A DNA stretch of 64,000 nucleotides, from contig SICL01000001.1 in NCBI GenBank assembly GCA_009691445.1, forward strand, positions 65,738 to 129,737. The letters are read 5' to 3'. Under the pieces are notes generated by a model, which was not told the DNA's origin, made no database searches, and saw only the letters and a program-made list of their open reading frames with translations. The DNA is from Candidatus Taenariivivens baikalensis. GTDB lineage: Bacteria > Omnitrophota > Omnitrophia > Omnitrophales > Aquincolibacteriaceae. Positions 46,461 through 61,808 of the stretch are shown here, one piece after another. The position numbers and the translations under genes were made by a program. Numbering within the stretch: the first letter of the stretch is position 1; every line of letters starts with the position of its first letter.

Positions 46461-48539
46461 TTATCTCAAAAAATTACGCAGTGCATCCCGGCTGAAGATC
46501 GGAAGCTGACAGGTTTGATTGCGGCAAATATAGACCGCAGCGGCTTCCACGCTTGCTTCAAGTGAAGGAATCCACGGAACTAATGTCTTTAACTCAGAAT
46601 AATCATTTGGACCTGCACACACAACCAATATTTTGTTCGGAAAATATTTTGTTTGAATCTCCCGAAGCAATCCATTTTCCCCGTACAAACTTTCTTGAAG
46701 AGACAACACAACGAACTCACTCCCCTCCTGAAAAAGGTCGCGACTCATGAGCAACCAGGGAAAGGCACTGGGATGAGCTTGTCGATTTTTCTCTACAGAT
46801 AGAAGAGTTTTTCGTGCAGCCTCTCCAAAAACGGATTCCCCACAAATTCTTGCTAGGCGCGCCAAAACCCAGGCACTCACCGAGTTAGAAGAAGGCACCG
46901 CTCCATCATAATAGTCTTTAGTTAGCGCAATAAGCTTTTCGCTATCCTTCGCCGTATAGAAAAAGCCTCCAGCTTCCACATCTTCGAAGAGGTCGAGCAT
47001 CTGATAGGCCAGCCGCTTTGCTTCTTTAAGCCATTTGAGTTTAAAGGTGGCTTCATAAAGATCCAGAAGTCCAAGGATCAAATAGGCATAATCTTCATGA
47101 CAGGCTGGGCCGGACGTCTCACCATCGCGAAAACGACGCAGCAAGCGCCCTTCGATTTGTATCCGGGATAAAACAAAATCTGCAGCACGGGAAGCTATCT
47201 CCGCATACGATGAATCACCAAGGGCTGAAGCCCCTAAAGCAAAGGCGGAAATCATGAGGCCGTTCCAACCGGTCAAAATCTTGTCATCTGTCAAGGGAGG
47301 AATACGTTTTTTCCTTTCGTGGTAAACTTTCCCGCGCATGACTTGAATCTGTGCTCTGAAACTCTCGACGGACATTCCTTGACGAGCCGCATAGGATTCC
47401 AGATCTTCTTGCACCCGCAAAATGGACGTAGCATGTTCAAAATTTCCTTGCGGGGTCACATCGTAATACAGGTTAAAGATTTGGGCGTCAGGATCACCCA
47501 GAATCGCTTTAGTTTCTGAGGAATTCCAGACATAAAATTTCCCTTCGATGCCTTCGCTGTCCGCATCCTGCGCAGAAAAAAAGCCGCCCTCTGGATGCGT
47601 CATATCACGGCTAACATAGTTCAAAATATCGCGGGCAACTTCAGAATAAAATGGCGTTTGAGTGACTTGCCAGGCTTCAAGATAAACCCGGGTAAGGATG
47701 GCCTGATCATAGAGCATCTTTTCAAAATGAGGCGCAAGCCATTCCCCATCCGTAGAATAACGGTGAAAACCGCCGCCGAGCTGGTCATACATTCCACCGC
47801 GAGCCATTTTCTGAAGGGTGTGCTCCACCATTTGAAGGGCTTCTTTATTTTTAGAGCGTTTGCTGTACCAAAGCAAAAAAGAAAGATTATGGCCTGATGG
47901 AAATTTAGGCGCTTGACCAAACCCTCCGTGCACAGGGTCATACATCATCCGGTAATTGTGAAAAGCTTTTTCCATTGCCGCAGAAATATCCGGCATTGTG
48001 TCCGCAGATGCATTAGTAGGTTGGAGCGCATAGGAAATCTTTTCGGAAGATTCTAAAATTTCAACCCGACGCTCCTGCCAAAGGCCTGCAATTCTTGGTA
48101 GAAGATTTTTCATACCAGCACGGCCCCAGCGATCCTCAGGCGGAAAATAGCTCCCACCCATAAAGGGTTTTAAATCTGGCGTCAAAAAAACTGTCAGTGG
48201 CCAGCCTCCGGACTGATTCATTGCTTGTACCGCTGACATATAAACATGATCAATATCCGGCCGTTCCTCCCGGTCAACCTTTACGGAAATAAAATCTTTG
48301 TTCAGCAAGGCTGCGATTTCTTCGTTCTCGAAGGATTCTCGTTCCATCACATGGCACCAGTGGCAAGTGGAATAACCAATCGACAGAAATATTACCTTAT
48401 TCTCGGTTCTTGCCTTGGCCCACGCTTCGGGACCCCAAGGAAACCAGCTCACAGGATTATGGGCATGCTGGAGAAGATAAGGGCTTTTTTCTAAAATAAG
48501 ACGGTTAGTATAAACAGGCTCTGACGATTGCATAAACAC
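46461..48539 (-). CDS. Thioredoxin-domain DUF255 protein (YyaL/SSP411-like) with (alpha/alpha)6 domain
   Basis: N-terminal '[21 protein letters not shown]' thioredoxin-like motif; 692 aa. Confidence 0.8.
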
Positions 48540-48604
48540 CTCTTGGTCAGTATAGTCAAAACCTACGGTTCAAGGCAAAATAAAAAGTGCCGATTATCAG
48601 AAAC

Positions 48605-48988
48605 ATGAAAAAGAGTCTTTTATTGACAACACTCCTGCTCCCGCTCTTATCAACTGGCTGTGTGGGATACGATGTGCCGCCACGCATTTTTCACTGGAAA
48701 CCCTTTCGCTTACTGCGAAGCAGCGAGCAAGTCGGGCGAGATCAGGTGACAAATCGCTTATTTGTGGCCGTAAAGGCTTATCCTCTCAGAGGCCGATTTT
48801 CAAATGAGGTTTTGAGCTTTTTAGGACAGCCGCAGGAAATTAAGATCCTTGAACGCGGCGTTTCGGAAGATTGGCTTTATATTTATTACAAACCCCATCT
48901 CAAGGAAAGGATTGACTCGGAGGAGGGATCCTTCCTGGTAAGATTCTATAACGATAAAGTGATTGATGTCGTCAGGGACGTGGTTTAG
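48605..48988 (+). CDS. BamE/SmpA_OmlA-like small outer-membrane lipoprotein
   Basis: Lipobox 'LLSTGC'; 'VLSFLGQPQEI...WLYIY...FLVRFYNDKVIDV' resembles the BamE family. Start at Met-7. Confidence 0.5.
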   Translation: MKKSLLLTTLLLPLLSTGCVGYDVPPRIFHWKPFRLLRSSEQVGRDQVTNRLFVAVKAYPLRGRFSNEVLSFLGQPQEIKILERGVSEDWLYIYYKPHLKERIDSEEGSFLVRFYNDKVIDVVRDVV

Positions 48989-49001
48989 TCTCCGTTTTTC
49001 G

Positions 49002-49280
49002 TCAGCAATCTGCTTGGATCACAAGGTCAAGAGAAGACAAACGATTGATAAACGACAAGGCATCTTTCTCCGCCTGCTGAAGACTCACTTCAAAGGTATG
49101 GGTCAAGTGATCAATCACATCAGAGACAGCGAAATGACCGTCAAGGCAAATCCAGATTTCCGTCGCGACGGTATCAAACTGAAACACCTTTCCCTCTGCA
49201 TCATCCACTAAAACGGCCCGATCTTCGATAATCTTCCAGCTTATATCATCCCGTCTCTTAAAAATATCCGCCTTTTTCAT
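49002..49280 (-). CDS. PqqD-family protein (RiPP recognition element, RRE-type peptide chaperone) copy 1
   Basis: About 92 aa; 'WKIIEDRAVLVDDAEGKVFQFDTVATEIWICLDGHFAVSDVIDHLTHTFEVSLQQAEKDALSFINRLSSLDLV' fits the PqqD/RRE consensus. Start at Met-32 (AGGA SD, 8 nt after the upstream stop). Confidence 0.75.
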   Translation of the reverse strand: MKKADIFKRRDDISWKIIEDRAVLVDDAEGKVFQFDTVATEIWICLDGHFAVSDVIDHLTHTFEVSLQQAEKDALSFINRLSSLDLVIQADC

Positions 49281-49288
49281 GGAATTTC

Positions 49289-50815
49289 CTAGATTGAAAA
49301 AAAATGACCCAACGTCTGTTTGCATTGACGCGTGAAAATCAGCCAGTGAATCCTTATTTCTTCCGCAAAACATTCCAAGGCCTTTGAAATATTTCCCTGC
49401 CGCAGATAAACAGCTGCTAGTAGGGCATAAGTACGCGGCTTATGCCATCCCATCCGTAAGGCCTCACGGAGCTCTTTCCTCGCCTCTTCATAATTGCCCT
49501 CATGCAACTGGCATTCCGCAATACCTAAATGGGTTTGCGGATCAGTGGAATCAGACCGCATGGCCTTCAGAAGATGCTCAAGAGCCTTTCGATGATGGCT
49601 ACATCCTAAATGAATTTCTCCCAGATGGCGATGGGCCGACGCATGATCGGGATATTGAGCAATGACTTCCAAATATTTGGCGGCCGCCTTCCGCCACTCC
49701 TTGCGTCTCGATAAATACAAAGCCTCCCCCATCTTTGGCCAAGCCTCGTGCTGTAGAAGCTGACCCATTCTGGAGTATTCTTGATAGGCTTCCGTATACC
49801 GGCCCGCCTCTTCATAGTGGAGCGCAAAACAACTATCACTTGTGCGAAATTCAGGATCAATCAATGCGGCTTGTTCATAGACCAAGCGGGCCTCGTCAAG
49901 TCGCTTTTCTTCCCACAAGAGATTGGCTTTAAGAAAAAGTCGGGTCGCTTCAAAAATCCCTTCACTGTGAAAATGCTCCAAGGCCTTTTGGGTTTGTCCT
50001 GATTGCCCCTGAGAAAGCTGGAGCCATATTTGCTTAAGATGATGATAAGCTTCCGGCAGTGGGCGTCCTTGCGAAAGTTCGCAAAGAGTCACGCCGAAAA
50101 ATTTCATCAGGATGGGCGTGAAACCACCACGCACGGAGTGTGATACCGCAGTCAGCGATGCACGAATCCCCTTTTCCTGAAGCTTTCGATAAAACTCTTC
50201 GGGCCAAATCCAGGGTAATGATCGAAGCATCAGGGACGGTTTTGGGAGTTTTGAAATGGATCGAGCGGCAAAGTAATCCACATCAATATTTAAAAGCACC
50301 GGCTCTTCAATGACCGGCATTTCTTCCAGGGATGCAACAATCGTTTCCACGCCCCAAAAAGAGGTGCGAAATACGCCCCCTTCAACACGGGGATAATCCA
50401 TCGGGCCCATTTTTATTTTATAAAGATCTAGAAGATTTTGCCAGATCTCGAATTTAAGATGCGGCGATTTCCATTGGGGATCAGGCACAACCCAATACCA
50501 TTTCCGAACCATCTTTTCTTGAAAGACCCGGGATAAATAATTTCCTATATGAATTCGATGATGAAGACGTGGTGTAACTGTCCAGCCTTGGGGGGAAATA
50601 AGCTTTTGACCCACTTCCTGAAGGGTCGAAGCATCCAAGCAGCTTAGAGGTTGTTTATCTGAAATCCACTGAAAATCGGGGTGTTGATCAAAATGGACGA
50701 GGATAGCTTGATAAACCCCGCGTGCTTTCCACAACTGATAAACTTCATCATGATCGTCAACTAGATCAACCTGCGGGGAATTTGGAGGACAAGAAATTCC
50801 TGGAACGGAGTTCAT
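49289..50815 (-). CDS. UPF0489-like (arginase/deacetylase-fold-like) N-terminal domain fused to TPR repeats
   Basis: N-terminus carries 'ILVHFDQHPDF' and 'LLNIDVDYFA', reminiscent of the H-x-D / D-x-D metal motifs of arginase-fold and UPF0489 proteins. The C-terminal ~200 aa are TPR repeats. Confidence 0.45.
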   Translation of the reverse strand: MNSVPGISCPPNSPQVDLVDDHDEVYQLWKARGVYQAILVHFDQHPDFQWISDKQPLSCLDASTLQEVGQKLISPQGWTVTPRLHHRIHIGNYLSRVFQEKMVRKWYWVVPDPQWKSPHLKFEIWQNLLDLYKIKMGPMDYPRVEGGVFRTSFWGVETIVASLEEMPVIEEPVLLNIDVDYFAARSISKLPKPSLMLRSLPWIWPEEFYRKLQEKGIRASLTAVSHSVRGGFTPILMKFFGVTLCELSQGRPLPEAYHHLKQIWLQLSQGQSGQTQKALEHFHSEGIFEATRLFLKANLLWEEKRLDEARLVYEQAALIDPEFRTSDSCFALHYEEAGRYTEAYQEYSRMGQLLQHEAWPKMGEALYLSRRKEWRKAAAKYLEVIAQYPDHASAHRHLGEIHLGCSHHRKALEHLLKAMRSDSTDPQTHLGIAECQLHEGNYEEARKELREALRMGWHKPRTYALLAAVYLRQGNISKALECFAEEIRIHWLIFTRQCKQTLGHFFSI

Positions 50816-51108
50816 TCCGAAGAAATAGCTTTTATTTCAACAAGCTGAGATAAAAGAACTTCGAGATCCGTATTTATAGTCTGAGGCGAAACGTCAAACA
50901 CACCAAGCAGCTCTTCACGAATGTCACTGACTTTCTTCTTCCCATCAATCGCATCCCACACCACTGCCCCCATTTCGTTGAGAGAATAAATACTGTTAAC
51001 ATTTTCCAGATGGCGTTGTAGCGGGATGAGGACAATTTCCCCTGCAATTTTTCGGGCCACAAAATCGGGGCTTTTCTTGAAAAGTGAATCGTTAGTTTCA
51101 TTTATCAT
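50812..51108 (-). CDS. PqqD-family protein (RRE-type) copy 2
   Basis: About 98 aa; 'FVARKIAGEIVLIPLQRHLENVNSIYSLNEMGAVVWDAIDGKKKVSDIREELLGVFDVSPQTINTDLEVLLSQLVEIKAI'. Start set at the ATG at 51108. The TTG-extended ORF to 51198 would run through its own promoter. Confidence 0.75.
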   Translation of the reverse strand: MINETNDSLFKKSPDFVARKIAGEIVLIPLQRHLENVNSIYSLNEMGAVVWDAIDGKKKVSDIREELLGVFDVSPQTINTDLEVLLSQLVEIKAISSE

Positions 51109-51114
51109 GAGGAG

Positions 51115-51143
51115 ATTATAGGAACGGATGCAGGAATCGTCAA
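51115..51143 (-). promoter_or_regulatory. Putative sigma70 promoter TTGACG-N17-TATAAT for the pqqD2 operon (near-leaderless)
   Basis: Minus-strand -35 at 51143..51138 and -10 at 51120..51115. The -10 ends 6 nt before the ATG at 51108. Confidence 0.5.
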
Positions 51144-51163
51144 CAAAAGAGACAGCAATGTCT

Positions 51164-51192
51164 TTGAGAACTGCCGGCGGTAGTGCTAAAAT
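51164..51192 (+). promoter_or_regulatory. Putative sigma70 promoter TTGAGA-N17-(TG)TAAAAT for the nine-gene plus-strand operon
   Basis: -35 at 51164..51169, extended -10 TGcTAAAAT at 51184..51192, about 36-nt leader to the ATG at 51236. Confidence 0.5.
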
Positions 51193-51235
51193 GCGCAAGC
51201 AATTAATCCTAAATACGTGATGGATTCATAAGACT

Positions 51236-52087
51236 ATGACACTAATGATCGCGTCTCCTAATACATTCATGCGTTTCACCACAGATGGATCCAGCATGGG
51301 GGATTTTATCCAGGCGGGTGATGAACTCATCGCTAAACGTCTTTTTTCTCAGGACTATCACCTAGGAGATGTCCTCGTCTTCATGCATCCTGAACTTGAA
51401 AAACCCGTCGCCCACCGATTGCGGTGGAAGAAAAAAACGGGTCAGTCAGAGTGGGTTTTCTGTCTTTCCGGCGATTCCCATCCTCTTAGGTACGAATGGA
51501 TTCATGAGGATTTTATCAGAGGTCGGGTTGAACTGATTCTGAAAAAAAGTAGTAAAAAACTGCCCGCAGAATTTATCGTGAAGAATAATCTCTACACCCA
51601 TTGGATTTCCTTTATTCCGCATTGGATAGCCCATCAACTTAAAATCCTACTGATTCAAGGGCTTGAATTTTTTCAATCTCTGCCGGTTTCGCGCCATATT
51701 CTGGGCAAGATGCTTGGCTCGAAGGCGCGTTTTACTCACTATGATCATCTTAGCCATTTGGCGGTTGAGGCTAAGGTTTTTGGTAAATACGCAGGACGTG
51801 GACATCTCGTCTTTAATGCAAGCGAGGGGCCGGAGATTGTAAATCTTGAAGTCCGATCCCGATTCCAGGGGCTGGGCATTGGGAAGAAACTTCTTCATTT
51901 TTTAATTAACGAAGCCAAAAGCCGGAAAGCCACCCGCCTTTTCCTTTCTGTCTGGAATCAAAGCACACCGGCCTTACACCTTTATGAATCCGTCGGATTC
52001 CGAGCCATTCGCGAAGAAATGCTTCCTAGCGTCCGATGGCCCACACCTCGCTGCATGATAAAAATGGAGCTCCAGCTGGCTTCATGA
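51236..52087 (+). CDS. Peptidase S24/S26-like (LexA/signal-peptidase fold) domain fused to GNAT N-acetyltransferase
   Basis: N-terminal 'DGSSMGDFIQAGDELIAKRL...GDVLVF' fits the S24 'GDSM...GD.v.v' motif. C-terminal 'RFQGLGIGKKLL...RLFLSVWNQSTPALHLYESVGF' is a GNAT motif A. Confidence 0.65.
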   Translation: MTLMIASPNTFMRFTTDGSSMGDFIQAGDELIAKRLFSQDYHLGDVLVFMHPELEKPVAHRLRWKKKTGQSEWVFCLSGDSHPLRYEWIHEDFIRGRVELILKKSSKKLPAEFIVKNNLYTHWISFIPHWIAHQLKILLIQGLEFFQSLPVSRHILGKMLGSKARFTHYDHLSHLAVEAKVFGKYAGRGHLVFNASEGPEIVNLEVRSRFQGLGIGKKLLHFLINEAKSRKATRLFLSVWNQSTPALHLYESVGFRAIREEMLPSVRWPTPRCMIKMELQLAS

Positions 52088-53223
52088 CATCCGACACCGA
52101 ATCCTTACCCGTTTCTATATTGATGCAGGATCCATCTCGAGAAATTCTACAATCGTTTTTTTTTCCAACGGAGCGTGCGTGGGAAAATTCAATATTCAGT
52201 GGCGATTTTCTGATGGCAGAGGTAAAAAAACAAAAACTTGCTCTTCTTTTTCACTCGCTGGTTACGGTAAATTCCTCCTTGAAAAATAGTTTATCTCAAG
52301 ATCATCTTATTTGGCTCAAACATAACTACTACACAGCCCTTGAAAAGGTAACACTCCAGCAGGAAGCCATCAAAGAACTGCTTCACACCTTCCAAGAAAA
52401 CAATCTCCCCGTCATCCTTCTTCGGGGACAGTCCTTGGGACTTTTTTATTATCCGGATGCGGCATTGCGTCCGGCCTGGGATGTCGATATCCTCATTCAC
52501 CCCCAGGATCTCGCTCGCTGCGGGGATATCTGCAGCCAGTTAGGACTCGTGCGCCGGGAAGCGCATGGTGAAATAGGTTTTTTTAGAAATAGTGGGATTC
52601 AATTCCATTTGGATGTGCATACAGATCTTTGGTATGAATCCCAGGAAAATACTCTCTGGGAACGCTGCCTCCAAAAGGATTTTCTCGGCCAACCCTGCCT
52701 CATCTTGGGCCCTGAGGACCACGTGATTCACATCGTGGCCCATTCCGTGATGCATCACGGGCGTTTTTCGCTTCATGACGCTGTGGACCTCGCACTTATT
52801 ATTCGTAAAGAAGAACACCTTGATTGGACACAAATCCATCGGACGGTCAGAGGGACGCACCTGAGCGCAGTTATTTACTACGCTCTGAACAAAATTTCTG
52901 CGTGGACGAGTATCAAGATTCCCGATGCCTTGCTTTCCCCATTTAAACCGACGGGTGCCTCGGCCTGGCAGATTCCTTTCTATGAGCGTATCATTCGTTC
53001 ATATGACCGCCCATTTGTTGGACATTTTCTGCGTCCTTTTTGTATTCAAGGATGGCGGGGGAAAAAAAACTTTGTTCTGAACTATCTCTTCCCATCTTCT
53101 GAGTTTATTCGTCAGCGCTACTCGGCGCCGCATATGTTTTCAGTTGCGTGGTGGCGATTTGTTCGCCCGCTCACTCTGTGTTACAAAAGCCTGGGATTTC
53201 TCGTCAGATGTCTTCTACAATGA
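52084..53223 (+). CDS. Pol-beta-superfamily nucleotidyltransferase-like protein (NTP_transf_5/PF14907-like)
   Basis: 'LRGQSLGLFYYPDAALRPAWDVDILI' matches the minimal NTase motif hG[GS]-x(9-14)-DhDh. About 380 aa. ATGA overlap with the upstream gene. Confidence 0.55.
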   Translation: MTSDTESLPVSILMQDPSREILQSFFFPTERAWENSIFSGDFLMAEVKKQKLALLFHSLVTVNSSLKNSLSQDHLIWLKHNYYTALEKVTLQQEAIKELLHTFQENNLPVILLRGQSLGLFYYPDAALRPAWDVDILIHPQDLARCGDICSQLGLVRREAHGEIGFFRNSGIQFHLDVHTDLWYESQENTLWERCLQKDFLGQPCLILGPEDHVIHIVAHSVMHHGRFSLHDAVDLALIIRKEEHLDWTQIHRTVRGTHLSAVIYYALNKISAWTSIKIPDALLSPFKPTGASAWQIPFYERIIRSYDRPFVGHFLRPFCIQGWRGKKNFVLNYLFPSSEFIRQRYSAPHMFSVAWWRFVRPLTLCYKSLGFLVRCLLQ

Positions 53224-54047
53224 TCACGAATGATCACGACATTCAAATCATGACTCTCATGCCGCATGCCATTGAAGCGAAAAATTTGTCCAAGACTTTT
53301 AAGCATCGCGTTCCATTCGCCCCTTTTGGATCTCGTATTCCCCCCAATACCACGATCGCACTTCGTGAGTTTAATCTGACAATCAAGGCAGGAGAAATAT
53401 TTGCTCTCCTGGGTCCAAATGGTGCAGGAAAAACGACGCTCCTCAAGATTCTGAGTCATCTGGTAATTCCTGATGCTGGAGTTGCGCTCATTTATGGCCA
53501 CTCCTTCAAAACGCACGCAATGCGAATCAAAACCCTGGTCAGCTTGCTTTTAGGCGAGGAACGTAGCTTTTACTGGCGCCTTACTGGGAGGCAAAACCTT
53601 GAATTTTTCGCTGCCCTTTATGAGATAAAGCCTAAAGAAATCGCACTGAAAATCCTTCAAGTTGAAAAACTTTTTGAGCTGGAAAGTCTGGATCAACGTT
53701 ATCAGGAATATTCTTCGGGGATGAAACAAAGACTTGCTCTGGCAAGGTGTTTCTTAAGCCAGGCGAAACTTATTTTGATGGATGAGCCCACTCGAAATCT
53801 GGATCCGAATAACGCCGAAAAATTCAGGAGCCTCATAAAAACCTATCTTCAAGAAAGACCCGATCACACATTTTTTTTTACAACGCATAACACTCAGGAG
53901 GCAGAGTATCTTGCCCACCGGATCGGCATTTTGGATCACGGCGTTCTTCAAGCCTGTGGTTCTTTGGACGAACTACGTCATTTAATCAATAATCCAAACG
54001 CGTCACTCGATGAGATCTTTCATAACTTCACACGGAAAAAATCATGA
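53220..54047 (+). CDS. ABC transporter ATP-binding protein (ABC-2/DrrA-Wzt-like)
   Basis: Walker A 'GPNGAGKTT', signature 'YSSGMKQRL', Walker B 'ILMDEPT'. Confidence 0.9.
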   Translation: MITNDHDIQIMTLMPHAIEAKNLSKTFKHRVPFAPFGSRIPPNTTIALREFNLTIKAGEIFALLGPNGAGKTTLLKILSHLVIPDAGVALIYGHSFKTHAMRIKTLVSLLLGEERSFYWRLTGRQNLEFFAALYEIKPKEIALKILQVEKLFELESLDQRYQEYSSGMKQRLALARCFLSQAKLILMDEPTRNLDPNNAEKFRSLIKTYLQERPDHTFFFTTHNTQEAEYLAHRIGILDHGVLQACGSLDELRHLINNPNASLDEIFHNFTRKKS

Positions 54048-54853
54048 ACTGGAATACGATCATCGCTTTTTTTCGGCGCGACTACTTAGAACGAGCAACC
54101 TATAAGAGCGCCTTTTTCCTGGAGCTGGGAGGAATTCTTGCCAACCTCATTACGTTTTATTATATTCAAAAACTGTTTATCACTGCCCACCCAGCAGCCC
54201 TTCAGCCTTATGGCGGAGATTATTTCGCATTTGTTCTCATCGGGCTTGCTTTTTCAGGGTATCAATCCACAGCCCTAAACAGCTTCTCAACCGCCTTACG
54301 GCAAGAACAAATGCAGGGTACTCTGGAAGCAATCCTGTTAACTCCAACACGCATTGAGACCGTCATGCTGGCGGGATCAATCTGGAATTTTTTAGTCACC
54401 ACCTTGAAAATTCTAGCTCATCTGATGCTCGGTGTTGTATTTTTCCACCTTGATTTGTCTAAAATGAATTTACTTTCGGTGATTGTTACCTTGATTTTTA
54501 CGATTATTTCTTTGAGCAGTCTTGGGCTTTTCTCAGCCGGTTATACTTTGGTCCATCAAAAAGGTGACCCTGTCAATTTCGTCATTAATGCCGCCTCCCG
54601 TTTTTTCTCCGGGGTATATTTTCCCATCACTATGCTGCCCATTGGCCTTCAGTATGTTGCAAAGATTATTCCCCTCACACATGCATTGAACGCAATGCGT
54701 GACAGCCTTCTCAGAGGTTATTCGTTAACTCAAATTCATTCCGATCTTCTGTGGCTTATCCTATTCTCATTGATTCTCTTCCCTTCCGGAATTTTTTATT
54801 TTTATAAGTCTGTGGAAAAAGCAAAAAAAGAAGGGACGCTCATTTTTTATTAA
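54044..54853 (+). CDS. ABC-2 type transporter permease
   Basis: 269 aa, six predicted TM helices. ATGA overlap with the ATPase. Confidence 0.8.
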   Translation: MNWNTIIAFFRRDYLERATYKSAFFLELGGILANLITFYYIQKLFITAHPAALQPYGGDYFAFVLIGLAFSGYQSTALNSFSTALRQEQMQGTLEAILLTPTRIETVMLAGSIWNFLVTTLKILAHLMLGVVFFHLDLSKMNLLSVIVTLIFTIISLSSLGLFSAGYTLVHQKGDPVNFVINAASRFFSGVYFPITMLPIGLQYVAKIIPLTHALNAMRDSLLRGYSLTQIHSDLLWLILFSLILFPSGIFYFYKSVEKAKKEGTLIFY

Positions 54854-54854
54854 T

Positions 54855-56243
54855 ATGAAACGCTCGGTCATCATTTTTGGCGCAGGCGTGTCCGGACTTA
54901 CACTGGGCTGGAAACTTGCAAAGCAGAATTATCAGGTCCGAATCCTGGAAGCTTCCTCTCAAGTCGGCGGATTGGCTGGAACCATTCGTCAGAAGGGTTA
55001 CTGCTTGGATTTTGGACCCCATTCATTTTTTACCGACGACGAAGAAATCTCCAAAATTTTTCATCATCTTTTTCCTTCTCCGTTGCCTCCTCTTAGCCGA
55101 CGGGTCCGGTTTCGTTATCAGGGGAAATACCTGGACTACCCTCTCACCGCACAAAGTGTTCTCTTTCAAATGGGACTGCACCAGGGATTGAAAGCTTTGG
55201 GAAGTTTTCTGATAACTCGGTTTGCGCCCAGCAAGGAACCGCCCCTTCATGAGCAAAGTGTAAAGGATTGGGCGGTTCGTCACTTTGGTCGACACCTGTA
55301 TGAAACATTTTTTAAGCCCTACACCGAGCAGTTCTGGAAAATTCCTGCCGAGGATCTCTCAGCACAGTCGATTCCCACCAGCACTCGAACTGGTTTTTTT
55401 AAAGCATTACACCTGATGCTGCAAAAAAATAGTCCCGGTAAGAATCCGTCTCTCATGGAACGGGAGACTCTACCGACATTTTATCCCTCAACCGGATATG
55501 GCGAACTCCCTGAAAGAATTCTAGCAGAGTTTTTGCGGGCTGGCGGTAAGCTCGTTCTTGATTCGAAAGTCACGGGACTCGAGCATCTTCCGTCCAATGA
55601 ATTCCGCATTGAAACGGTTGAGAACCAGACTATCACAAATTACTTGGCTGACATTGTTGTTTCAACGATTCCCCTACCCGTGTTAATCCAAACCCTTGAA
55701 CCCGCCGTTTCCCCTGAGGTCCGCGATGCCGCAAATCGCCTCAAATACCGACCGCTAATCGTTCTAGGCTTAATGACTTCAAAGCAAAAGGTCCTTAGGG
55801 ATTGGATGTACGTTTACTTCCTTGACCGTTCCTACAACCGCATTTTTGAAACGTCCCAATTTAGCTCGTCCGCATGCCCGCCTGGTAAAAATTTGCTCGC
55901 CCTTGAAATCCCTTGTTCATTTCAAGATCCGCTGTATTGCGCAACGGCGGAGGATCTCCTGGAAAAGGTCCTTCCGGATCTTCACCGTGATGGCTTGCTT
56001 GAACGGGGGGATATTGAAGGGATGATGCTTGTAAAATCCAAGTACGCCTATCCGATCTATCACCTGGAATACCGCAAGCATCTGGCACTCGTGCATCAGT
56101 ACCTATCCAGCATTCCGAATCTTCATATTCTGGGACGCACAGGAGAATTTAGGTATATGGATGCAGATCGGTGCATGCGGTTCGCCTTGGAACTCTTTGG
56201 AAAAATTGATCAACATCAACCCGATAAACTTCCTTCGTATTAA
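54855..56243 (+). CDS. FAD/NAD(P)-binding amine-oxidase/protoporphyrinogen-oxidase-like oxidoreductase
   Basis: 'IIFGAGVSGLTLGWKLA...LEASSQVGGLAGT' dinucleotide-binding motif; 462 aa. Confidence 0.7.
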   Translation: MKRSVIIFGAGVSGLTLGWKLAKQNYQVRILEASSQVGGLAGTIRQKGYCLDFGPHSFFTDDEEISKIFHHLFPSPLPPLSRRVRFRYQGKYLDYPLTAQSVLFQMGLHQGLKALGSFLITRFAPSKEPPLHEQSVKDWAVRHFGRHLYETFFKPYTEQFWKIPAEDLSAQSIPTSTRTGFFKALHLMLQKNSPGKNPSLMERETLPTFYPSTGYGELPERILAEFLRAGGKLVLDSKVTGLEHLPSNEFRIETVENQTITNYLADIVVSTIPLPVLIQTLEPAVSPEVRDAANRLKYRPLIVLGLMTSKQKVLRDWMYVYFLDRSYNRIFETSQFSSSACPPGKNLLALEIPCSFQDPLYCATAEDLLEKVLPDLHRDGLLERGDIEGMMLVKSKYAYPIYHLEYRKHLALVHQYLSSIPNLHILGRTGEFRYMDADRCMRFALELFGKIDQHQPDKLPSY

Positions 56244-56288
56244 TCATCTTTACTTTAAATAAAAACCGTTATTAAATGTCTTGCGATC

Positions 56289-57566
56289 ATGACAAAAAAT
56301 CTGATATCCCCTGCAGAAAAAAGGAAATCCTTCGGTAAAGATAGAGTAACCGCCTGCCGCATCTGCCAGTCTCAAATTATTCCCTTTATCAACTTCGGAA
56401 ATATGCCCCTCGCCAATGGTTTTCTTACACCCGCACAGTTCGCAGAGGAATACTTCTATCCTCTTGAATGCTCTGTCTGCAGTTCGTGCTGGATGGTTCA
56501 ACTCAGCCATCAACCTGACCCGGAGTGGATGTTCCATTCCAACTACCCTTTTTTTACGGGAACTTCCCAGCGAATGTCGAATCATTTCAGGGCCCTGGCC
56601 GATACGATCATGTCCCACTATCTGGATCAGCAGAAGGATCCCTTCATTCTAGAGATCGGAAGTAATGACGGTACTTTCTTGAAACATTTCAGCAAAAAGA
56701 GTATTCGCACACTCGGGATCGAGCCCTCGGCCAGCGTTGCTGAACGTTCCCGGAATTTAGGAATCCCCACACTTCAGAAGTTTTTTGACGCGGAAGTCGC
56801 CGAATCGATTTTAAAAGAGCATGGTCAACCGCACGTCATTTATGCGGCAAATGCCTTGTGTCATATCCCAGATCTTGCGGGTACTTTTGAGGCGATTCAA
56901 AAGCTTATGCACCCCCAGGGGATTTTAATTTTCGAAGATCCATATTTGCCTTCCGTCCTGGAAAAGACGGCATACGATCAAATTTACGATGAACACGTTT
57001 ACCTTTTTTCGCTGCATTCGGTTAGCAACCTCGCAAAACGCTATGGCTTTGAAGTCTTCGATGCACAGCAGCTTGATACGCACGGTGGCTCGATGCGCTA
57101 CTTTCTGTCCCGCCAGGCCCGCAAACAGCTTTATGACGATCTTTGGTCCTTAACCGTGTCAGAAAAAAACTTTCATCTTGATGAGATAGCGACTTACATG
57201 AAATTTTCTGGCGCCTGTGAAACGTCCCGAACTACTTTGAAATCACTCCTGCTAAACCTAAAGCAAGAGGGGAAATCCATCGCGGGTTATGCCGCCACTT
57301 CCAAAAGCACAACCGTTCTCAACTATTGCGGCATTGACAAGTCTCTCATTGATTTTATTGCCGACTCCACGCCAGAAAAACAAGGCAAGCTTACACCTGG
57401 ATCTCATATCCCTATTGTTTCGCCGGACTATTTCCAATCCAACTACCCCGATTACGCCCTTCTTTTTGGTTGGAATCATTTAGAAGAAATTTCCGGGAAA
57501 GAACAAACGTTCCAGAAGGCTGGAGGCCGGTGGATTGTTTACGTACCTAAAGTGCAAGTTATATGA
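56289..57566 (+). CDS. Sugar C-methyltransferase family protein (TylC3/NovU-like: Zn-ribbon + class I SAM MTase + C-terminal domain)
   Basis: N-terminal CxxC...CxxC ('CRICQSQ...CSVCSSC') and 'ILEIGSNDGTFL' SAM motif I. At 425 aa it is typical of NDP-hexose C-methyltransferases. Confidence 0.6.
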   Translation: MTKNLISPAEKRKSFGKDRVTACRICQSQIIPFINFGNMPLANGFLTPAQFAEEYFYPLECSVCSSCWMVQLSHQPDPEWMFHSNYPFFTGTSQRMSNHFRALADTIMSHYLDQQKDPFILEIGSNDGTFLKHFSKKSIRTLGIEPSASVAERSRNLGIPTLQKFFDAEVAESILKEHGQPHVIYAANALCHIPDLAGTFEAIQKLMHPQGILIFEDPYLPSVLEKTAYDQIYDEHVYLFSLHSVSNLAKRYGFEVFDAQQLDTHGGSMRYFLSRQARKQLYDDLWSLTVSEKNFHLDEIATYMKFSGACETSRTTLKSLLLNLKQEGKSIAGYAATSKSTTVLNYCGIDKSLIDFIADSTPEKQGKLTPGSHIPIVSPDYFQSNYPDYALLFGWNHLEEISGKEQTFQKAGGRWIVYVPKVQVI

Positions 57567-58639
57567 TGCAGGCCCATCTTTCTGATGATCGCCTTCAGGA
57601 ATCCCCTTCTGTTTATCCAAAAGAAAATAGGAGCAATTCAGAGGCTGATGTTTTGTCGGACTTTAATTTATTTTTTTCAGGGAAAAAGATTCTTGTCACC
57701 GGGGCCAGCGGATATATCGCCCATACCCTTATTGAAAGACTGTCGCATTTTAAATGCGAACTCTATCTTTCATCCCAGCATCCCGACCAGATCACACCAC
57801 CACCCCTCAATTTGGGGTTGCTCAAATTCATGTCTCTTTCTTCTGATTTTTCCCTGCACACCTTTCAGAACATCGTTCCTGAATTGGATATAATTTTTCA
57901 TCTCAGCGCCCAGACAAATCTAACCTGTTCTTTTCAAAATCCTGGGCAAGATTTTATTGCGAATGTCTTGCCACTGGTCCACATTTTGGAGGCCGCGAAA
58001 AGACGCCAGAAACCTCTCGCGGTCATTCTGGCAAGTACCGTCACCATCTTCGGTATCCCCAATAAAATCCCTGTCAATGAATCATGCCCCGATCACCCAA
58101 TGACCTTTTACTGTTTCCATAAAAAACTGGCCGAGGATTATCTGAAAAGCTATACGGATGGTTCCTGGGTGACCGGCGCTTCTCTGAGGCTGCCAAATAT
58201 TTATGGACCGGGGCCAAAATCGAGCAATACAGAGCGCGGGGTCCTGAATCAGATGATTCGCAAATCCATCCAAGGCCACCCCCTTACCATCTATGGAGAG
58301 GGCCGAGAAATCAGGGATTATCTCTACATCGAAGATGCCGTGGACGCATTCCTATACTCTGCGCTGAATCATACACGGTTGGTGGGAAAGCCTTACGTGA
58401 TTGGTTCCGGGCACGGGTCTTCGATAAGTCAAAGCATTTCCCTTGTGGCGGAAAGAGTTGGGTCCTATCTGAGTCGAAATATTTCAATCGAGCACATTGA
58501 TCATCCGGAGAATAACTACGCCATCAACGAGAGGAATTTCGTGGCCGACGCTCAATTGTTTGCATCTCTGACGGGGTGGAAGGCCCGTACCTCCCTATCC
58601 GATGGCATTGCTCAAACGCTAAAAAGTTACTTAATATGA
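57563..58639 (+). CDS. Extended-SDR NAD-dependent epimerase/dehydratase
   Basis: 'ILVTGASGYIAHTL' and the YxxxK catalytic dyad (YCFHK). Confidence 0.8.
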   Translation: MMQAHLSDDRLQESPSVYPKENRSNSEADVLSDFNLFFSGKKILVTGASGYIAHTLIERLSHFKCELYLSSQHPDQITPPPLNLGLLKFMSLSSDFSLHTFQNIVPELDIIFHLSAQTNLTCSFQNPGQDFIANVLPLVHILEAAKRRQKPLAVILASTVTIFGIPNKIPVNESCPDHPMTFYCFHKKLAEDYLKSYTDGSWVTGASLRLPNIYGPGPKSSNTERGVLNQMIRKSIQGHPLTIYGEGREIRDYLYIEDAVDAFLYSALNHTRLVGKPYVIGSGHGSSISQSISLVAERVGSYLSRNISIEHIDHPENNYAINERNFVADAQLFASLTGWKARTSLSDGIAQTLKSYLI

Positions 58640-59604
58640 AAATTCTAATATTGGGCGGAGCTGGATTTCTTGGAACTAATCTTACACGAGGCTGGCTTGG
58701 GAATCCCGATGCTCAAGTCACAGTTCTCGATAGTTTTGATAACCGTTTTCAGTCCAACAAAAAATCCTTGGATGATGTGTGGGAGAAAATTAGTGTCGTT
58801 CGAGGATCTATATTAGACGAAAGACTTCTCGCTGAAATCGTTCCTCAACATGATGTGATCTATCACCTCGCCGCCCAGTCTTCCCACACCCTTTCGTTAA
58901 AACAACCGATTCTTGACGCTGAAATTAATTGTCTAGGAACTTTGAAGCTCCTTGAAAGTATCCGTTTATTTCATCCCGAGGCTTTAGTTATTTATCCATC
59001 CAGCACGACAAGCGTAGGAAAAGCTGAGGAAGACATCATCGACGAAAATCATTCCGAGAAACCTCTTGAAATATACTCTGCCAATAAAGGCGTCTCAGAA
59101 AAATATTTCCAAATTTACAACCTCGTTCACGGACTTAAGACCATCGTCTTTCGCTTTAGCAACCTTTACGGCCCTTACGGAAAAGCTTCTGCCGAGTTTG
59201 GATTTATCAATCATTTCATTTATCAAGCGCTCAATCATCGGCCCCTGACCATTTTTGGCTCGGGGGAACAGATCCGTAATGTCCTGTACGTGGGCGACGC
59301 GGTCGAACTTTTGATGTCAGCGGCATATCAACCGCAACTGTGCGGACAGCTTGCTCAGGCAACAAGCCCCCATCACCACTCTGTCCGTCAAATTGCTCAA
59401 ACCATTGTGGAAACTTTTCAGTCGGGACATGTCGTCTATGAAACCTGGCCGAATGAAAGAAAGCGCATTGACGTGGAAAGCGTCCGCTTTTCCTCCGAAA
59501 AACTCCGCGCCCTTACGGGGTGGAGCGCCCCCACTGATCTTGTCACGGGCATTCGAAGAACATGTGAAATTCTTCTTTCTTCTGAGTCTCGGGAACGACC
59601 TTGA
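58636..59604 (+). CDS. Extended-SDR NAD-dependent epimerase/dehydratase
   Basis: 'ILILGGAGFLGTNL', YSANK. ATGA overlap upstream. Confidence 0.8.
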   Translation: MKILILGGAGFLGTNLTRGWLGNPDAQVTVLDSFDNRFQSNKKSLDDVWEKISVVRGSILDERLLAEIVPQHDVIYHLAAQSSHTLSLKQPILDAEINCLGTLKLLESIRLFHPEALVIYPSSTTSVGKAEEDIIDENHSEKPLEIYSANKGVSEKYFQIYNLVHGLKTIVFRFSNLYGPYGKASAEFGFINHFIYQALNHRPLTIFGSGEQIRNVLYVGDAVELLMSAAYQPQLCGQLAQATSPHHHSVRQIAQTIVETFQSGHVVYETWPNERKRIDVESVRFSSEKLRALTGWSAPTDLVTGIRRTCEILLSSESRERP

Positions 59605-60542
59605 AGATTGTTATCACGGGAGCTTTAGGATATATCGGTTCTAAACTTATCCAAGAAATCCAAAAAAAAATTCCTAGAGCACGGCTGATCTTGATTGATA
59701 ATTTGATGACTCGAAATCAGGCATCTCTTTCAGACCTACCTGGCCATGTGCCGTATGAATTCCATAAAATCGATGTACTACACGATGATTTGAGTCCCTA
59801 TTTTCAAGACGCTCAGTTTGCGGTTCATTTAGCCGCAGCGGTCGATCCTCAAAACTATCCCACCGAAAATCTTTCAAACCACCGCATGACACAGCGGGTT
59901 GCAGAGGAATGCCTAAAAAACCACACGACTCTTATCTTCCCATCAACCACGAGTGTTTATGGTGTTTCGCACCCCCACCTCTGCGAATCTGAGGACTCGA
60001 ATACGGTTCACCCGCAAACTCCCTACGCCCACGATAAACGCATCTCAGAACTTTATTTTCACGGCCTTGCAGCGGAAGGCCTTCGTTTTGTCATCTTTCG
60101 ATTTGCGACAATTTTCGGAGTTTCCCCGGGACTTCGCTACCAAACCGCGATTGGAAAGTTCTGCCAGGATGCTGTCATGAACCATCAAATCGCTGTTTGG
60201 AGCTCAGCGCTCCATCAGTACCGTCCCTATTTAGACCTTGAGGATGCCGTGCAAGCCATTCTCTTCGCCCTTACCAACCAGCTGGATACCGGCGAAATCT
60301 TTAATCTGGCAAGCCTTCACGCAACGGCAAAGGAAGTTCTTGATCTCATCGCTTGTTCTGCTTCATTTGAGACAAAATTAGTTCCGTCACCACTTATGAA
60401 CAATCTCAGTTATCAGATTTCGTGTGAAAAAATTTGCCGGAAGGGATTTGTGTTTCGTGGAAATTTAGAAGCTGGAATTAGAGATACAATCGATGTACTC
60501 CGATATCAGGAATCAGACCTTTTCAACAAAAACAGGGTTTGA
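59601..60542 (+). CDS. Extended-SDR NAD-dependent epimerase/dehydratase
   Basis: 'IVITGALGYIGSKL', YAHDK. TTG start overlapping the upstream stop (TTGA). Confidence 0.7.
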   Translation: MKIVITGALGYIGSKLIQEIQKKIPRARLILIDNLMTRNQASLSDLPGHVPYEFHKIDVLHDDLSPYFQDAQFAVHLAAAVDPQNYPTENLSNHRMTQRVAEECLKNHTTLIFPSTTSVYGVSHPHLCESEDSNTVHPQTPYAHDKRISELYFHGLAAEGLRFVIFRFATIFGVSPGLRYQTAIGKFCQDAVMNHQIAVWSSALHQYRPYLDLEDAVQAILFALTNQLDTGEIFNLASLHATAKEVLDLIACSASFETKLVPSPLMNNLSYQISCEKICRKGFVFRGNLEAGIRDTIDVLRYQESDLFNKNRV

Positions 60543-61808
60543 CATCACTCGCCCCCCTGTCCTGACCTCGCCCTGAACTCGGTAATAAATCAAAGGACCA
60601 TCCTCAAACGCGTTGGGATCTTCCCATCCAAAAGATGGCTTAGTTTTAGAAAGTGCATCTTCATAAACGACTTGTCCATTTCGGATCACCTGAACATTAA
60701 CTTCATCTCCCGACTTTTTCTCGGTGACCAATCCGATCTCAACAAAAATCCTGGGTTGTCCGGTGCAAATAAGCGTTTCACCCATTCCTGATTTTTTTTC
60801 CGACGCCGAGTCAGAAATGAAAAAATCATTAAGACGGAGATCGGTATGTTTAATTTTTCGAATATAAAAACTTCCCCGCTTGATTGAATCTAAAATGGCC
60901 TCGGGGGTGCGCGCCGTTGCTCGAACAAAATTATCCCATTTCCCAAAATTCTCTTGAAACGTTTTCTTATGAATGACCCCCTCCGCAAAGGCCCAAACAG
61001 GTTGAGAGCGACGCTTCCGGCAGTATTTGTAAAGAAGCTGGTCCCAAATCCCACCGACTCGGCCCGTCTCCACAGTTCCATCGGGAAAAATGCCAACTCC
61101 TGTGTAATTTTCTGTATCCAACAATGCCTGGCTGTAAGCAGGGGTTTTAAAATAAATTGGTCCGATTTTAAAATTCGAGCCAAAAACCTCGTCAGGAGTG
61201 GACCAAATCGTGATGCCCTGATGAGCTTGGACATAATCGATCAGGACTTGATACGGTTTTGCCCCCTCCCTTTTAGGGCCTAAGTTTCGGGTGAGATTCC
61301 CATTTTCAATCGTTGGTAGATTCTGAAGGGATGGAGCATCCAAACCCGCCACTAGAATATTTTTCTGCAGGTCATGGACGGTCCAATCTTGTGACCATAA
61401 ACTGCCACTCCACCAATAATACGGTGTGACCTCGGCACCGGGAATCGCTAAGACTTCGGGATAAGTTTGGTTGAACTCATCCGTGGCTTGAAAATAGCGG
61501 GAAACGCCGTACTTCACGGCCGATGGTTTCTCGTGACTCCATTGAAGGAACGGAATCGGCGGAACTAATCGCACCGTCACTTTTTGCTGGAAATATTCAG
61601 TCAGAAGTAGAACATCGACATCTTTTTCTTTAGCAAATTGGGCATAATCTTCGAGGGAATATTCATCTTCCCCGCTGATCTGCGAATGAGCATGCAAAAT
61701 CACACGATAATCGTGCAGGCCGGAACTTGAAAAAGCAAAAACTGGGAATGCCGACAACAAGAGTGCGGGGAAGATAAAAAAAAGATAAAAGTTATTGTTT
61801 TTGCGCAT
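60513..61808 (-). CDS. Secreted PHP-domain-like phosphoesterase family protein
   Basis: Signal peptide; 'VILHAHSQISGEDEYSLEDYAQFAKEKDVDVLLLTEY' resembles the PHP 'hHhH..S.G......e....a...g...hahTDH' N-terminal motif. Confidence 0.45.
   Translation of the reverse strand: MRKNNNFYLFFIFPALLLSAFPVFAFSSSGLHDYRVILHAHSQISGEDEYSLEDYAQFAKEKDVDVLLLTEYFQQKVTVRLVPPIPFLQWSHEKPSAVKYGVSRYFQATDEFNQTYPEVLAIPGAEVTPYYWWSGSLWSQDWTVHDLQKNILVAGLDAPSLQNLPTIENGNLTRNLGPKREGAKPYQVLIDYVQAHQGITIWSTPDEVFGSNFKIGPIYFKTPAYSQALLDTENYTGVGIFPDGTVETGRVGGIWDQLLYKYCRKRRSQPVWAFAEGVIHKKTFQENFGKWDNFVRATARTPEAILDSIKRGSFYIRKIKHTDLRLNDFFISDSASEKKSGMGETLICTGQPRIFVEIGLVTEKKSGDEVNVQVIRNGQVVYEDALSKTKPSFGWEDPNAFEDGPLIYYRVQGEVRTGGRVMSNPVFVEKV

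Follow-up and report, generated by a model that had tools for sequence, protein, structure and literature searches.

What is made by a locus that encodes two PqqD-type recognition elements, a peptidase fused to an acetyltransferase, a nucleotidyltransferase-fold protein and an exporter, and in which no peptide precursor is evident? The question is raised by seven genes at positions 49002–54853 of a 64,000-nucleotide stretch of Candidatus Taenariivivens baikalensis DNA (Omnitrophota; contig SICL01000001.1, positions 65,738–129,737), which we refer to as the window. The original prediction, made from the letters of the window, treated the genes as a self-contained and undescribed class of locus for peptides that are ribosomally synthesized and modified post-translationally (RiPPs). 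On balance, we favor a different answer: these genes make up one half, responsible for processing, tailoring, and export, of a conserved RiPP cassette that occurs chiefly in Omnitrophota. The half-cassette is intact and probably either trans-acting or orphaned. We view the locus as an incomplete representative of a wider cassette, itself a variation on the machinery of linear polyphosphorylated peptides (LPPs) and paeninodin, rather than as a stand-alone class.

Conserved gene neighborhoods of the locus

The seven open reading frames (ORFs) of the locus are full length and their catalytic residues are intact. The minus strand carries an anchor triad: PqqD1 (50812–51108), a gene for an arginase-like domain followed by tetratricopeptide repeats (TPRs) that we term arginase::TPR (49289–50815), and PqqD2 (49002–49280). 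PqqD1 and arginase::TPR overlap by 4 nt, and a gap of 8 nt separates arginase::TPR from PqqD2. The plus strand carries a string that encodes an S24/S26-like peptidase fused to a GNAT acetyltransferase (S24::GNAT), an NTP_transf_5 protein, an ATP-binding cassette (ABC) ATPase, and an ABC-2 permease, with a 4-bp overlap at every junction. Pfam, NCBIfam, and gene calls recovered all genes of the original prediction in the places where it had put them.

Relatives of arginase::TPR were gathered by protein searches and by a scan of one genome per species, and their neighborhoods were mapped by tblastn and locally built hidden Markov models (HMMs); the counts given here refer to 26 loci of at least 15 kb. 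An HprK-like protein of the ScmC type lies beside arginase::TPR in 25 of these loci, and a PqqD in 24. Radical-SAM genes, a small precursor, and an NTP_transf_5 gene are each present in 21 of the 26, followed by an S24-like peptidase (18), an ABC ATPase (16), an ABC-2 permease (10), and a GNAT (10). Most occurrences of the cassette are in Omnitrophota; others are in Elusimicrobia, Planctomycetes, Nitrospirae, Acidobacteria, and Deltaproteobacteria.

The fullest relatives, loci L005, L022, L024, and L038, have the order PqqD1, arginase::TPR, PqqD2, radical-SAM, radical-SAM, precursor, ScmC-like, radical-SAM, and nucleotidyltransferase (NTase). They also contain ABC transporter genes and an S24-type peptidase (GNAT-fused except in L038), the position and strand of which vary. 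Full cassettes encode one to three radical-SAM enzymes that are of the SPASM type where tested, and some loci add a B12-binding radical-SAM protein. Three radical-SAM proteins tested from L003 gave SPASM-type matches (ScmE, ScmF, MftC, and StsB), all far below equivalog cut-offs, and the ScmC-like protein of the same locus gave weak ScmC and HprK-related matches. Loci L026 and L039 each hold three copies of the precursor gene, along with as many as six radical-SAM genes, which indicates that parts of the cassette can be multiplied or dispersed within a genome.

The precursors of the related loci form a clear and, judged by sequence, coherent family. Their leader has the pattern KK-Y-x-x-P-x-[ILV]-x-x-V-x-L-x-x-EQA-x-L, which includes the [Y/W]xxPx[LVIFA] element bound by the RiPP recognition elements (RREs) of lasso-type pathways (PMC13381572). 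The core begins with a Cys, continues to a later C-x(2–4)-C pair, and contains three or more Cys residues in total. Arg is present in all 28 cores analyzed (1–8 in each), and 27 of 29 precursor sequences end in Ser. Homologous neighborhoods thus carry a conserved precursor and are not uniformly polysaccharide export loci. This result upholds the assignment of the genes to a RiPP-type system of peptide tailoring, processing, and export.

The genes of the window resemble those of the related loci at several levels. PqqD1 is 45–58% identical to the PqqD1 proteins of full cassettes. The divergent arrangement recurs at 63% identity in P0002, and in L049 a string of S24::GNAT, NTase, ABC ATPase, ABC-2 permease, oxidoreductase, methyltransferase, C-methyltransferase, and epimerase genes is conserved at 30–51% identity. 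The contigs of both P0002 and L049 end before the region where radical-SAM genes could follow.

None of the precursor, ScmC-like, radical-SAM, or 693-aa families of the related loci was detected in the 64-kb window by tblastn and HMM searches. An HMM of 27 ScmC-like sequences revealed no HprK-like kinase in the window; its best match (E 0.13) falls on the ABC ATPase. The HMM of the precursor family, built from 28 sequences, found no match among window ORFs (best E 0.23). When small ORFs were scanned for the motif [YW]xxPx[LVIFA] preceded by a Met, few candidates emerged, all of which overlap longer annotated ORFs and none of which resembles a precursor. The impression that the locus has no evident precursor ORF was thus borne out across the window. 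We considered the 133-aa ORF at 48587–48988 as a precursor and rejected it; the protein carries a lipoprotein signal sequence and no leader motif, and its conservation follows synteny rather than the cassette.

A tblastn search with the Asn-synthase-like protein of L002 gave no match to a lasso cyclase in the window, and none of the ten ORFs of 48.5–57.5 kb matches the Pfam families of Asn-synthase or the transglutaminase-like B2 protease. The claim that all canonical core enzymes are missing is accurate to the extent that the window lacks homologues of radical-SAM enzymes and Asn-synthase. It is overstated in one respect, since a homologue of the peptide arginases is present.

Comparison with L038 and L005 places these absences in context. 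Relative to both loci, the PqqD–arginase–PqqD triad of the window is inverted, and a block of five genes between PqqD2 and the NTase gene is missing. A flanking gene for a BamE-like lipoprotein is common to the window, L005, and L038, and a YyaL-like gene to the window and L038; both relatives have the full cassette. These flanking genes mark one chromosomal neighborhood that the window has in common with its L038 and L005 relatives. Because the radical-SAM enzymes, the HprK-like protein, and the precursor belong to the canonical cassette and have here been lost or lie elsewhere, what the window holds is part of a cassette rather than a complete new class.

Further features were observed in the related loci. 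Proteins of approximately 675–695 aa recur beside PqqD1 (L003:2212–4293, L001:7625–9676, L038:7601–9640, L034:7938–9995, and L049:1117–5240). The L034 member has an S24-like N-terminus and clear matches to PMT_2/PMT (GT-C mannosyltransferase-like), and the L038 member has a weak PMT_2 match; these similarities hint at glycosylation of peptides or lipid-linked substrates. In six loci from metagenome-assembled genomes of Acidobacteriota/Terriglobia (L019, L025, L033, L036, L040, and L042), arginase::TPR and PqqD genes adjoin Asn-synthase-like and ScmC-like genes. Only L042 among them contains a radical-SAM gene, and none contains the precursor family with Cys, Arg, and C-terminal Ser. The Asn-synthase-like neighbors may represent a lasso-type context for the arginase::TPR subfamily.

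The anchor triad

Both small proteins of the triad are PqqD-type RREs, and HMM searches sustained this assignment for each of them. PqqD1 (50812–51108, minus strand) is 98 aa in length and scores 51.5 bits against PF05402, for which the threshold is 23.4 bits; its stop codon lies in the 4-nt overlap with the start of arginase::TPR. PqqD2 (49002–49280, minus strand) scores 48.7 bits and is 92 aa in length according to an independent gene call, although a longer ORF extends to 49373. The best matches of PqqD2 in the PDB are the lasso B1 RREs TfuB1, TbiB1, and PbaB1. Those of PqqD1 are weak and comprise PbaB1 (9X90), TbiB1, and LppB (9X8Z).

The protein encoded between the two RREs (49289–50815, minus strand; 508 aa) was originally described as a UPF0489-like/TPR protein flanked by PqqDs. 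Its position and its C-terminal TPRs (residues ~285–500) are as described. By distant homology, the UPF0489 part (PF12640-type; residues 1–255) is a homologue of the peptide arginases and hence itself a predicted tailoring enzyme. Scores of the window protein against PF12640 are below threshold (18.6–22.1 bits versus 27), and NF052474, the model for the peptide arginases FlmR and OhkR, matches with an E value of 9.4e-7 (28.6 bits; cut-off 350). A profile built from nine N-terminal domains gave one significant match in the PDB; this was OspR (8BRP; E 2.2e-9), a peptide arginase, and the motifs lay in register. Peptide arginases contain three sequence patterns (DxHxD, EEH(N/H)EAF, LDIDLDYF) that carry six His and Asp ligands of Mn (PMC12703449). 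The corresponding motifs of the window protein, FDQHPD, DDHDEVY, and LNIDVDYF, align with those of OspR. Among nine homologues, H22, D23, H41, D43, H45, D47, D178, and D180 (numbering of the window protein) are invariant; these include all six Mn ligands (H22, D43, H45, D47, D178, and D180). An AlphaFold2 model of the protein has a predicted local distance difference test score of 82.5. A Foldseek comparison of the full-length model with the PDB retrieved TPR proteins only and was uninformative on the N-terminal domain; likewise, a scan of metagenome contigs with the window protein gave matches only at the level of the TPRs.

The protein shares with the PF12640 peptide arginases (OspR, FlmR, OhkR, BipC, and PbsE) an arginase-fold domain, motifs of the HxE, DxHxD, and DxDxDYF types, and the complete set of Mn ligands. 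It differs from them in its length of ~500 aa, its C-terminal TPRs, the PqqD RREs on both sides, and a score far below the NCBIfam equivalog cut-off. An association with TPRs or RREs is unmentioned in the peptide-arginase literature that we examined. An exhaustive HMMER search retrieved 533 cluster representatives at E ≤0.001, 329 of them at E ≤1e-10. Most of the top 150 matches are 450–560 aa in length, which indicates that the TPR-fused form constitutes a sizeable subfamily. The homologue in L015 scores 29.6 bits against UPF0489, above the Pfam threshold. In this locus, a single 914-aa ORF (L015:8720–11464, plus strand) contains B12-binding, Radical_SAM, and UPF0489 domains followed by TPRs and a C-terminal PqqD, and thereby links arginase::TPR with a radical-SAM enzyme as well as with an RRE.

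Peptidase, acetyltransferase, and nucleotidyltransferase

The first gene of the plus-strand string (51236–52087) encodes a peptidase resembling signal peptidase I (SpI; S24/S26) joined to a RimI-like GNAT, with matches to TIGR02228, rimI, and PF00583. The GNAT half is solidly assigned (PF00583, 48 bits; rimI, E 1.5e-11) and is closest to N-terminal acetyltransferases of the RimI type. The peptidase half has no significant Pfam match (PF10502, E 0.21); against TIGR02228, the model of archaeal-type signal peptidase I, it reaches 29.5 bits (E 5.7e-7), below the equivalog cut-off of 51.85. Better S24 scores than that of the window protein were obtained for full-length homologues in L005, L022, and L024 and for related proteins in L007, L015, L023, and L038; those in L022 (31.4 bits), L007 (28.8 bits), and L038 (42.8 bits) clear the Pfam Peptidase_S24 threshold. 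In an alignment of ten homologues, a G-x-S-M motif and an HR are conserved and one Asp is invariant; in the window protein these positions are Ser20, His60, and Asp80. They correspond to the archaeal/ER-type triad that is essential in LppS, a peptidase of LPP clusters (S29/H68/D93; PMC13381572). Two homologues (L022:8823–9680 and L034:7938–9995) have GFCM in place of GxSM at the nucleophile position and, as far as their sequences indicate, may be leader peptidases that use Cys as nucleophile.

The start of the next gene (52084–53223, plus strand) overlaps the stop of the GNAT. It encodes a 379-aa protein of nucleotidyltransferase fold that belongs to NTP_transf_5 (PF14907, 110 bits). A DVD motif is visible in the translation, and sequence searches found no relative of the protein in the PDB. 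Triple fusions of Peptidase_S24, GNAT, and NTP_transf_5, about 620–665 aa in length, are encoded in L007 (13778–15772, plus strand) and L015 (13544–15415, plus strand), and in L002 GNAT and NTP_transf_5 domains share one 682-aa product. The fusions in these three loci indicate that peptidase, GNAT, and NTP_transf_5 constitute one functional module. A separate fusion in L021 joins a glycosyltransferase-2 domain to NTP_transf_5.

The original prediction had proposed that the S24::GNAT fusion cleaves and N-acetylates a peptide, which may then be nucleotidylated. This sequence of events stays reasonable. The published precedent for an NTP_transf_5-type enzyme is the addition of hexose to phospho-serine by PsmN rather than nucleotidylation (PMC6993621). 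Literature searches returned nothing relevant that pairs PF14907/NTP_transf_5 with PqqD, or PqqD with HPr kinase, nucleotidyltransferase, or radical SAM, and nothing relevant on the SynChlorMet/Scm names, TIGR04248–51, or PF27840.

The exporter and its operon

The final two genes of the string encode an ABC ATPase of 275 aa (53220–54047, plus strand; PF00005, 95 bits) and an ABC-2 type permease of 269 aa (54044–54853, plus strand; PF01061, 52 bits). The best match of the ATPase is DrrA (TIGR01188 drrA subfamily, 183 bits, below cut-off); Wzt, KpsT, and TagH are absent from its top 25 families. The permease has a weak match to KpsM (34 bits; cut-off 300). Homologues of the ATPase that are 38–44% identical adjoin the cassettes of L002, L005, L007, L015, L038, and L049, and homologues of the permease adjoin cassettes as well, even in L007, where the flanking ORFs tested gave no sugar genes. 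The exporter pair is coupled to sugar genes in the window, and its homologues also flank peptide cassettes that have none among the flanking ORFs tested.

The 4-bp overlaps on which the prediction of a translationally coupled string was based are real. The right boundary at 54853 was drawn too tightly, since the operon continues through five sugar-nucleotide genes to 60542. These genes (54855–60542, plus strand), assigned by Pfam and NCBIfam, encode a FAD oxidoreductase resembling UDP-galactopyranose mutase and amine oxidases, a sugar C-methyltransferase (Methyltransf_13/14), and three SDR epimerase/dehydratases. Their junctions are 4-bp overlaps except for gaps of 1 bp (after the permease) and 45 bp. 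Methyltransferases and a glycosyltransferase come after this block.

The two strands of the locus diverge from a 127-bp spacer (51109–51235), a size that agrees with the original description when the shorter starts also chosen by an independent gene call are used. It holds one promoter-like site per strand: TTGACG-17-TATAAT on the minus strand (51143–51115; 11 of 12 consensus positions) and TTGAGA-17-TAAAAT with TG on the plus strand (51164–51192; 10 of 12). They take the top two ranks among promoter-like matches in the 13.5-kb region 48400–61900, where the total number of matches does not exceed that in shuffled sequences. The same region contains 24 terminator-like hairpins (15.2 ± 4.2 in shuffles), mostly within coding sequence; none of them clearly ends the long operon.

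Beyond the sugar-nucleotide block, the minus strand encodes a 431-aa protein (60513–61808) that has a hydrophobic N-terminus, no Pfam match on record, and no assigned function. Its homologues adjoin the cassette in other loci: in L002, the gene immediately upstream of PqqD1 encodes a 39% identical copy, and L005 holds a further homologue. On the opposite side, the region 46461–48988 includes a gene for a YyaL-like thioredoxin-domain protein; L038 has a homologue upstream of its full cassette. The 133-aa protein encoded at 48587–48988, with its lipoprotein signal sequence, is possibly BamE-like and has no family match, and both L038 and L005 have homologues of it upstream of their cassettes. 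The remainder of the window is occupied by housekeeping genes, including lepA, trpAB, the glycine cleavage genes, and a dcw/mur cluster.

Comparison with known peptide-modifying systems

The closest described counterpart is the LPP family of Bacillota (Popov et al., Nat Commun, May 2026; PMC13381572). LPP clusters encode LppS (SpI-like, TIGR02228), the discrete RRE LppB, the HprK-like kinase LppK, the NTP_transf_5 protein LppN, and an MsbA-like pump, and they act on peptides even though they sit within capsular polysaccharide loci (PMC13381572). The window shares with them an SpI-like Ser/His/Asp leader peptidase, a PqqD RRE resembling lasso B1, NTP_transf_5, a dedicated exporter, and a polysaccharide-locus setting. 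The statement that this combination matches no described RiPP class can therefore not be maintained. Additional likenesses, an HprK-like protein and a YxxPx[ILV] leader, are confined to the related loci. The LPP leader YxxPxVLxHQxIxFETxxS (PMC13381572) and the leader of the related loci, YxxPx[ILV]xxVxLxxEQAxL, have only the YxxPx[ILV] part in common.

There are also differences from LPP clusters. The window belongs to Omnitrophota and contains neither an HprK-like kinase nor a precursor. Its exporter consists of a DrrA-like ATPase and an ABC-2 permease and is not MsbA-like (TIGR02203), its peptidase is fused to GNAT, and its two RREs surround a peptide-arginase::TPR protein. Full relatives depart further from LPP clusters by adding one to three radical-SAM enzymes and a Cys- and Arg-rich core that ends in Ser.

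A second point of reference is the modification of the lasso peptides paeninodin and pseudomycoidin, where an NTP_transf_5-type enzyme is likewise found beside a B1-type RRE and an ABC exporter. In the pseudomycoidin pathway, the C-terminal Ser receives a phosphate from the HprK kinase PsmK, and attachment of one or two hexoses to that phosphate requires the NTase-like PsmN (PMC6993621). Precursors of the related loci also end in Ser, the residue that is phosphorylated by PsmK. The window differs in that it lacks a lasso cyclase, B2 protease, and kinase, and in that dedicated sugar-nucleotide genes are cotranscribed. By analogy, the C-terminal Ser of the precursors, the ScmC-like protein, and the coupling of the NTase to sugar-nucleotide genes would fit PsmK/PsmN-type chemistry.

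The related loci resemble the SynChlorMet (SCM) cassette (ScmC, ScmD, ScmE, and ScmF) in combining PqqD-like, ScmC-like (PF27840), and radical-SAM/SPASM proteins, and the PqqDs of the window give sub-threshold matches to ScmD. Counterparts of ScmC, ScmE, and ScmF are absent from the window, and the best scores of L003 proteins against SCM models are 25–88 bits (cut-offs 125–400). Selidamide lipopeptide pathways also bring together a peptide arginase homologue and a GNAT in one peptide-tailoring locus; in those pathways the GNAT is reported to acylate ornithine (PMC12703449, which cites PMC8784127). No NHLP or Nif11 precursor was found in the window. The RimI-like character of the window's GNAT and its fusion to a leader peptidase suggest that it caps N-termini.

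Alternative explanations

Several observations weigh against reading the locus as half of a RiPP cassette. Precursor, kinase, and radical-SAM gene are all absent from the 64-kb window, so that a substrate is only assumed. The ScmC-like gene is missing in just 1 of the 26 long related loci (L031), and chemistry of the PsmN type requires a phosphorylated serine, for which the window supplies no kinase. In addition, the arginase call leans on distant homology, as illustrated by a score of 28.6 bits against a cut-off of 350 for NF052474.

The explanation that survives best beside our own, although we regard it as rather unlikely, is that the locus is an orphaned remnant. A rearrangement would have inverted the triad and deleted the block of radical-SAM, precursor, and kinase genes, leaving peptide genes that have no substrate and are either decaying or kept through the cotranscribed sugar genes. 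The inversion and the loss of five genes relative to the syntenic L038 and L005 loci are as this account predicts, as are the retention of the ScmC-like gene in 25 of the 26 long relatives and the failure of HMMs to detect any of the missing half in 64 kb. Against decay stand seven full-length ORFs, intact catalytic residues, and the preservation of tight 4-bp coupling. Conservation of the divergent arrangement at 63% identity in P0002 and at 30–51% in L049 argues for long-term selection, and the several precursors or dispersed copies in L026 and L039 make action in trans plausible.

It is improbable that the locus builds a polysaccharide or glycoconjugate, with a Wzm/Wzt-like ABC-2 pair and with the GNAT, NTase, and arginase-fold protein modifying a sugar polymer or its carrier. 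This idea draws on the coupling of the string to five sugar-nucleotide genes, followed by methyltransferases and a glycosyltransferase, on PMT_2-like proteins and a Polysacc_synt family gene in related loci, and on the weak match of the permease to KpsM (34 bits). The arginase fold is, moreover, common to deacetylases. Yet in L007 the ABC-2 pair and the triple fusion have a precursor gene and radical-SAM genes as neighbors, and those flanking ORFs that were tested encode unrelated ion transporters. The ATPase resembles DrrA, and its top 25 families include neither Wzt nor KpsT nor TagH; we know of no role in glycan synthesis for two RREs and an SpI-like peptidase. The LPP clusters, which likewise lie in capsule loci, act on peptides (PMC13381572).

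We give equally little credence to a self-contained RiPP class defined by S24::GNAT, with an unrecognized precursor in or near 49002–54853: all genes are intact and coupled, and LPP precursors of 35–200 aa with variable C-termini (PMC13381572) make an unconventional precursor conceivable, but a hidden precursor is unlikely given that no window ORF matches the precursor HMM or emerges as precursor-like from the motif scan, that the sole unassigned neighbor (48587–48988) is a syntenic gene with a lipoprotein signal sequence, that S24::GNAT occurs in a minority of related loci and always beside other maturases, and that the full cassette of the relatives includes radical-SAM, HprK-like, and precursor genes that the 64-kb window lacks.

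Proposed pathway and implications

If the locus does supply the processing, tailoring, and export functions of a RiPP cassette, homology, gene fusions, and published analogues suggest how it could operate. The two RREs would bind a leader of the YxxPx[ILV] type that is encoded elsewhere in the genome, and the Mn-dependent arginase domain would convert peptidyl arginine to ornithine. One RRE may then present the leader–core junction to the Ser/His/Asp peptidase domain, in the manner in which LppB presents the leader to LppS (PMC13381572). The fused RimI-like GNAT would acetylate the new N-terminus or possibly ornithine, and the NTP_transf_5 enzyme would attach a sugar-derived group made by the cotranscribed sugar-nucleotide enzymes, after which the ABC-2 pump would export the product.

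More tentatively, the wider cassette could represent an undescribed RiPP class of uncultivated phyla. Its products would combine thioether crosslinks introduced by radical-SAM/SPASM enzymes, ornithine generated by the TPR-fused arginase, and a phospho-glycosyl group, carrying a rare branched or deoxy sugar, on the C-terminal Ser. The variant in the window would then be a trans-acting module for finishing and export, with its precursors elsewhere.

The window holds only the headless half of the cassette, which limits what it can teach by itself; the related loci supply a precursor family that is directly testable. LppN was inactive in a heterologous host, and the authors of that study surmised that its substrate is rare and is made beyond the core cluster (PMC13381572). 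The sugar operon of the window is a concrete candidate for the source of such a missing substrate. If functional, the locus would extend the peptide-processing logic of SpI-like peptidase, RRE, and NTP_transf_5 from Bacillota to Omnitrophota and several other, mostly uncultivated phyla. It would also link this logic to a large uncharacterized subfamily of TPR-fused peptide arginases comprising hundreds of sequence clusters, to fusions of protease and acetyltransferase that in some cases include the nucleotidyltransferase, and to a dedicated sugar-nucleotide operon.

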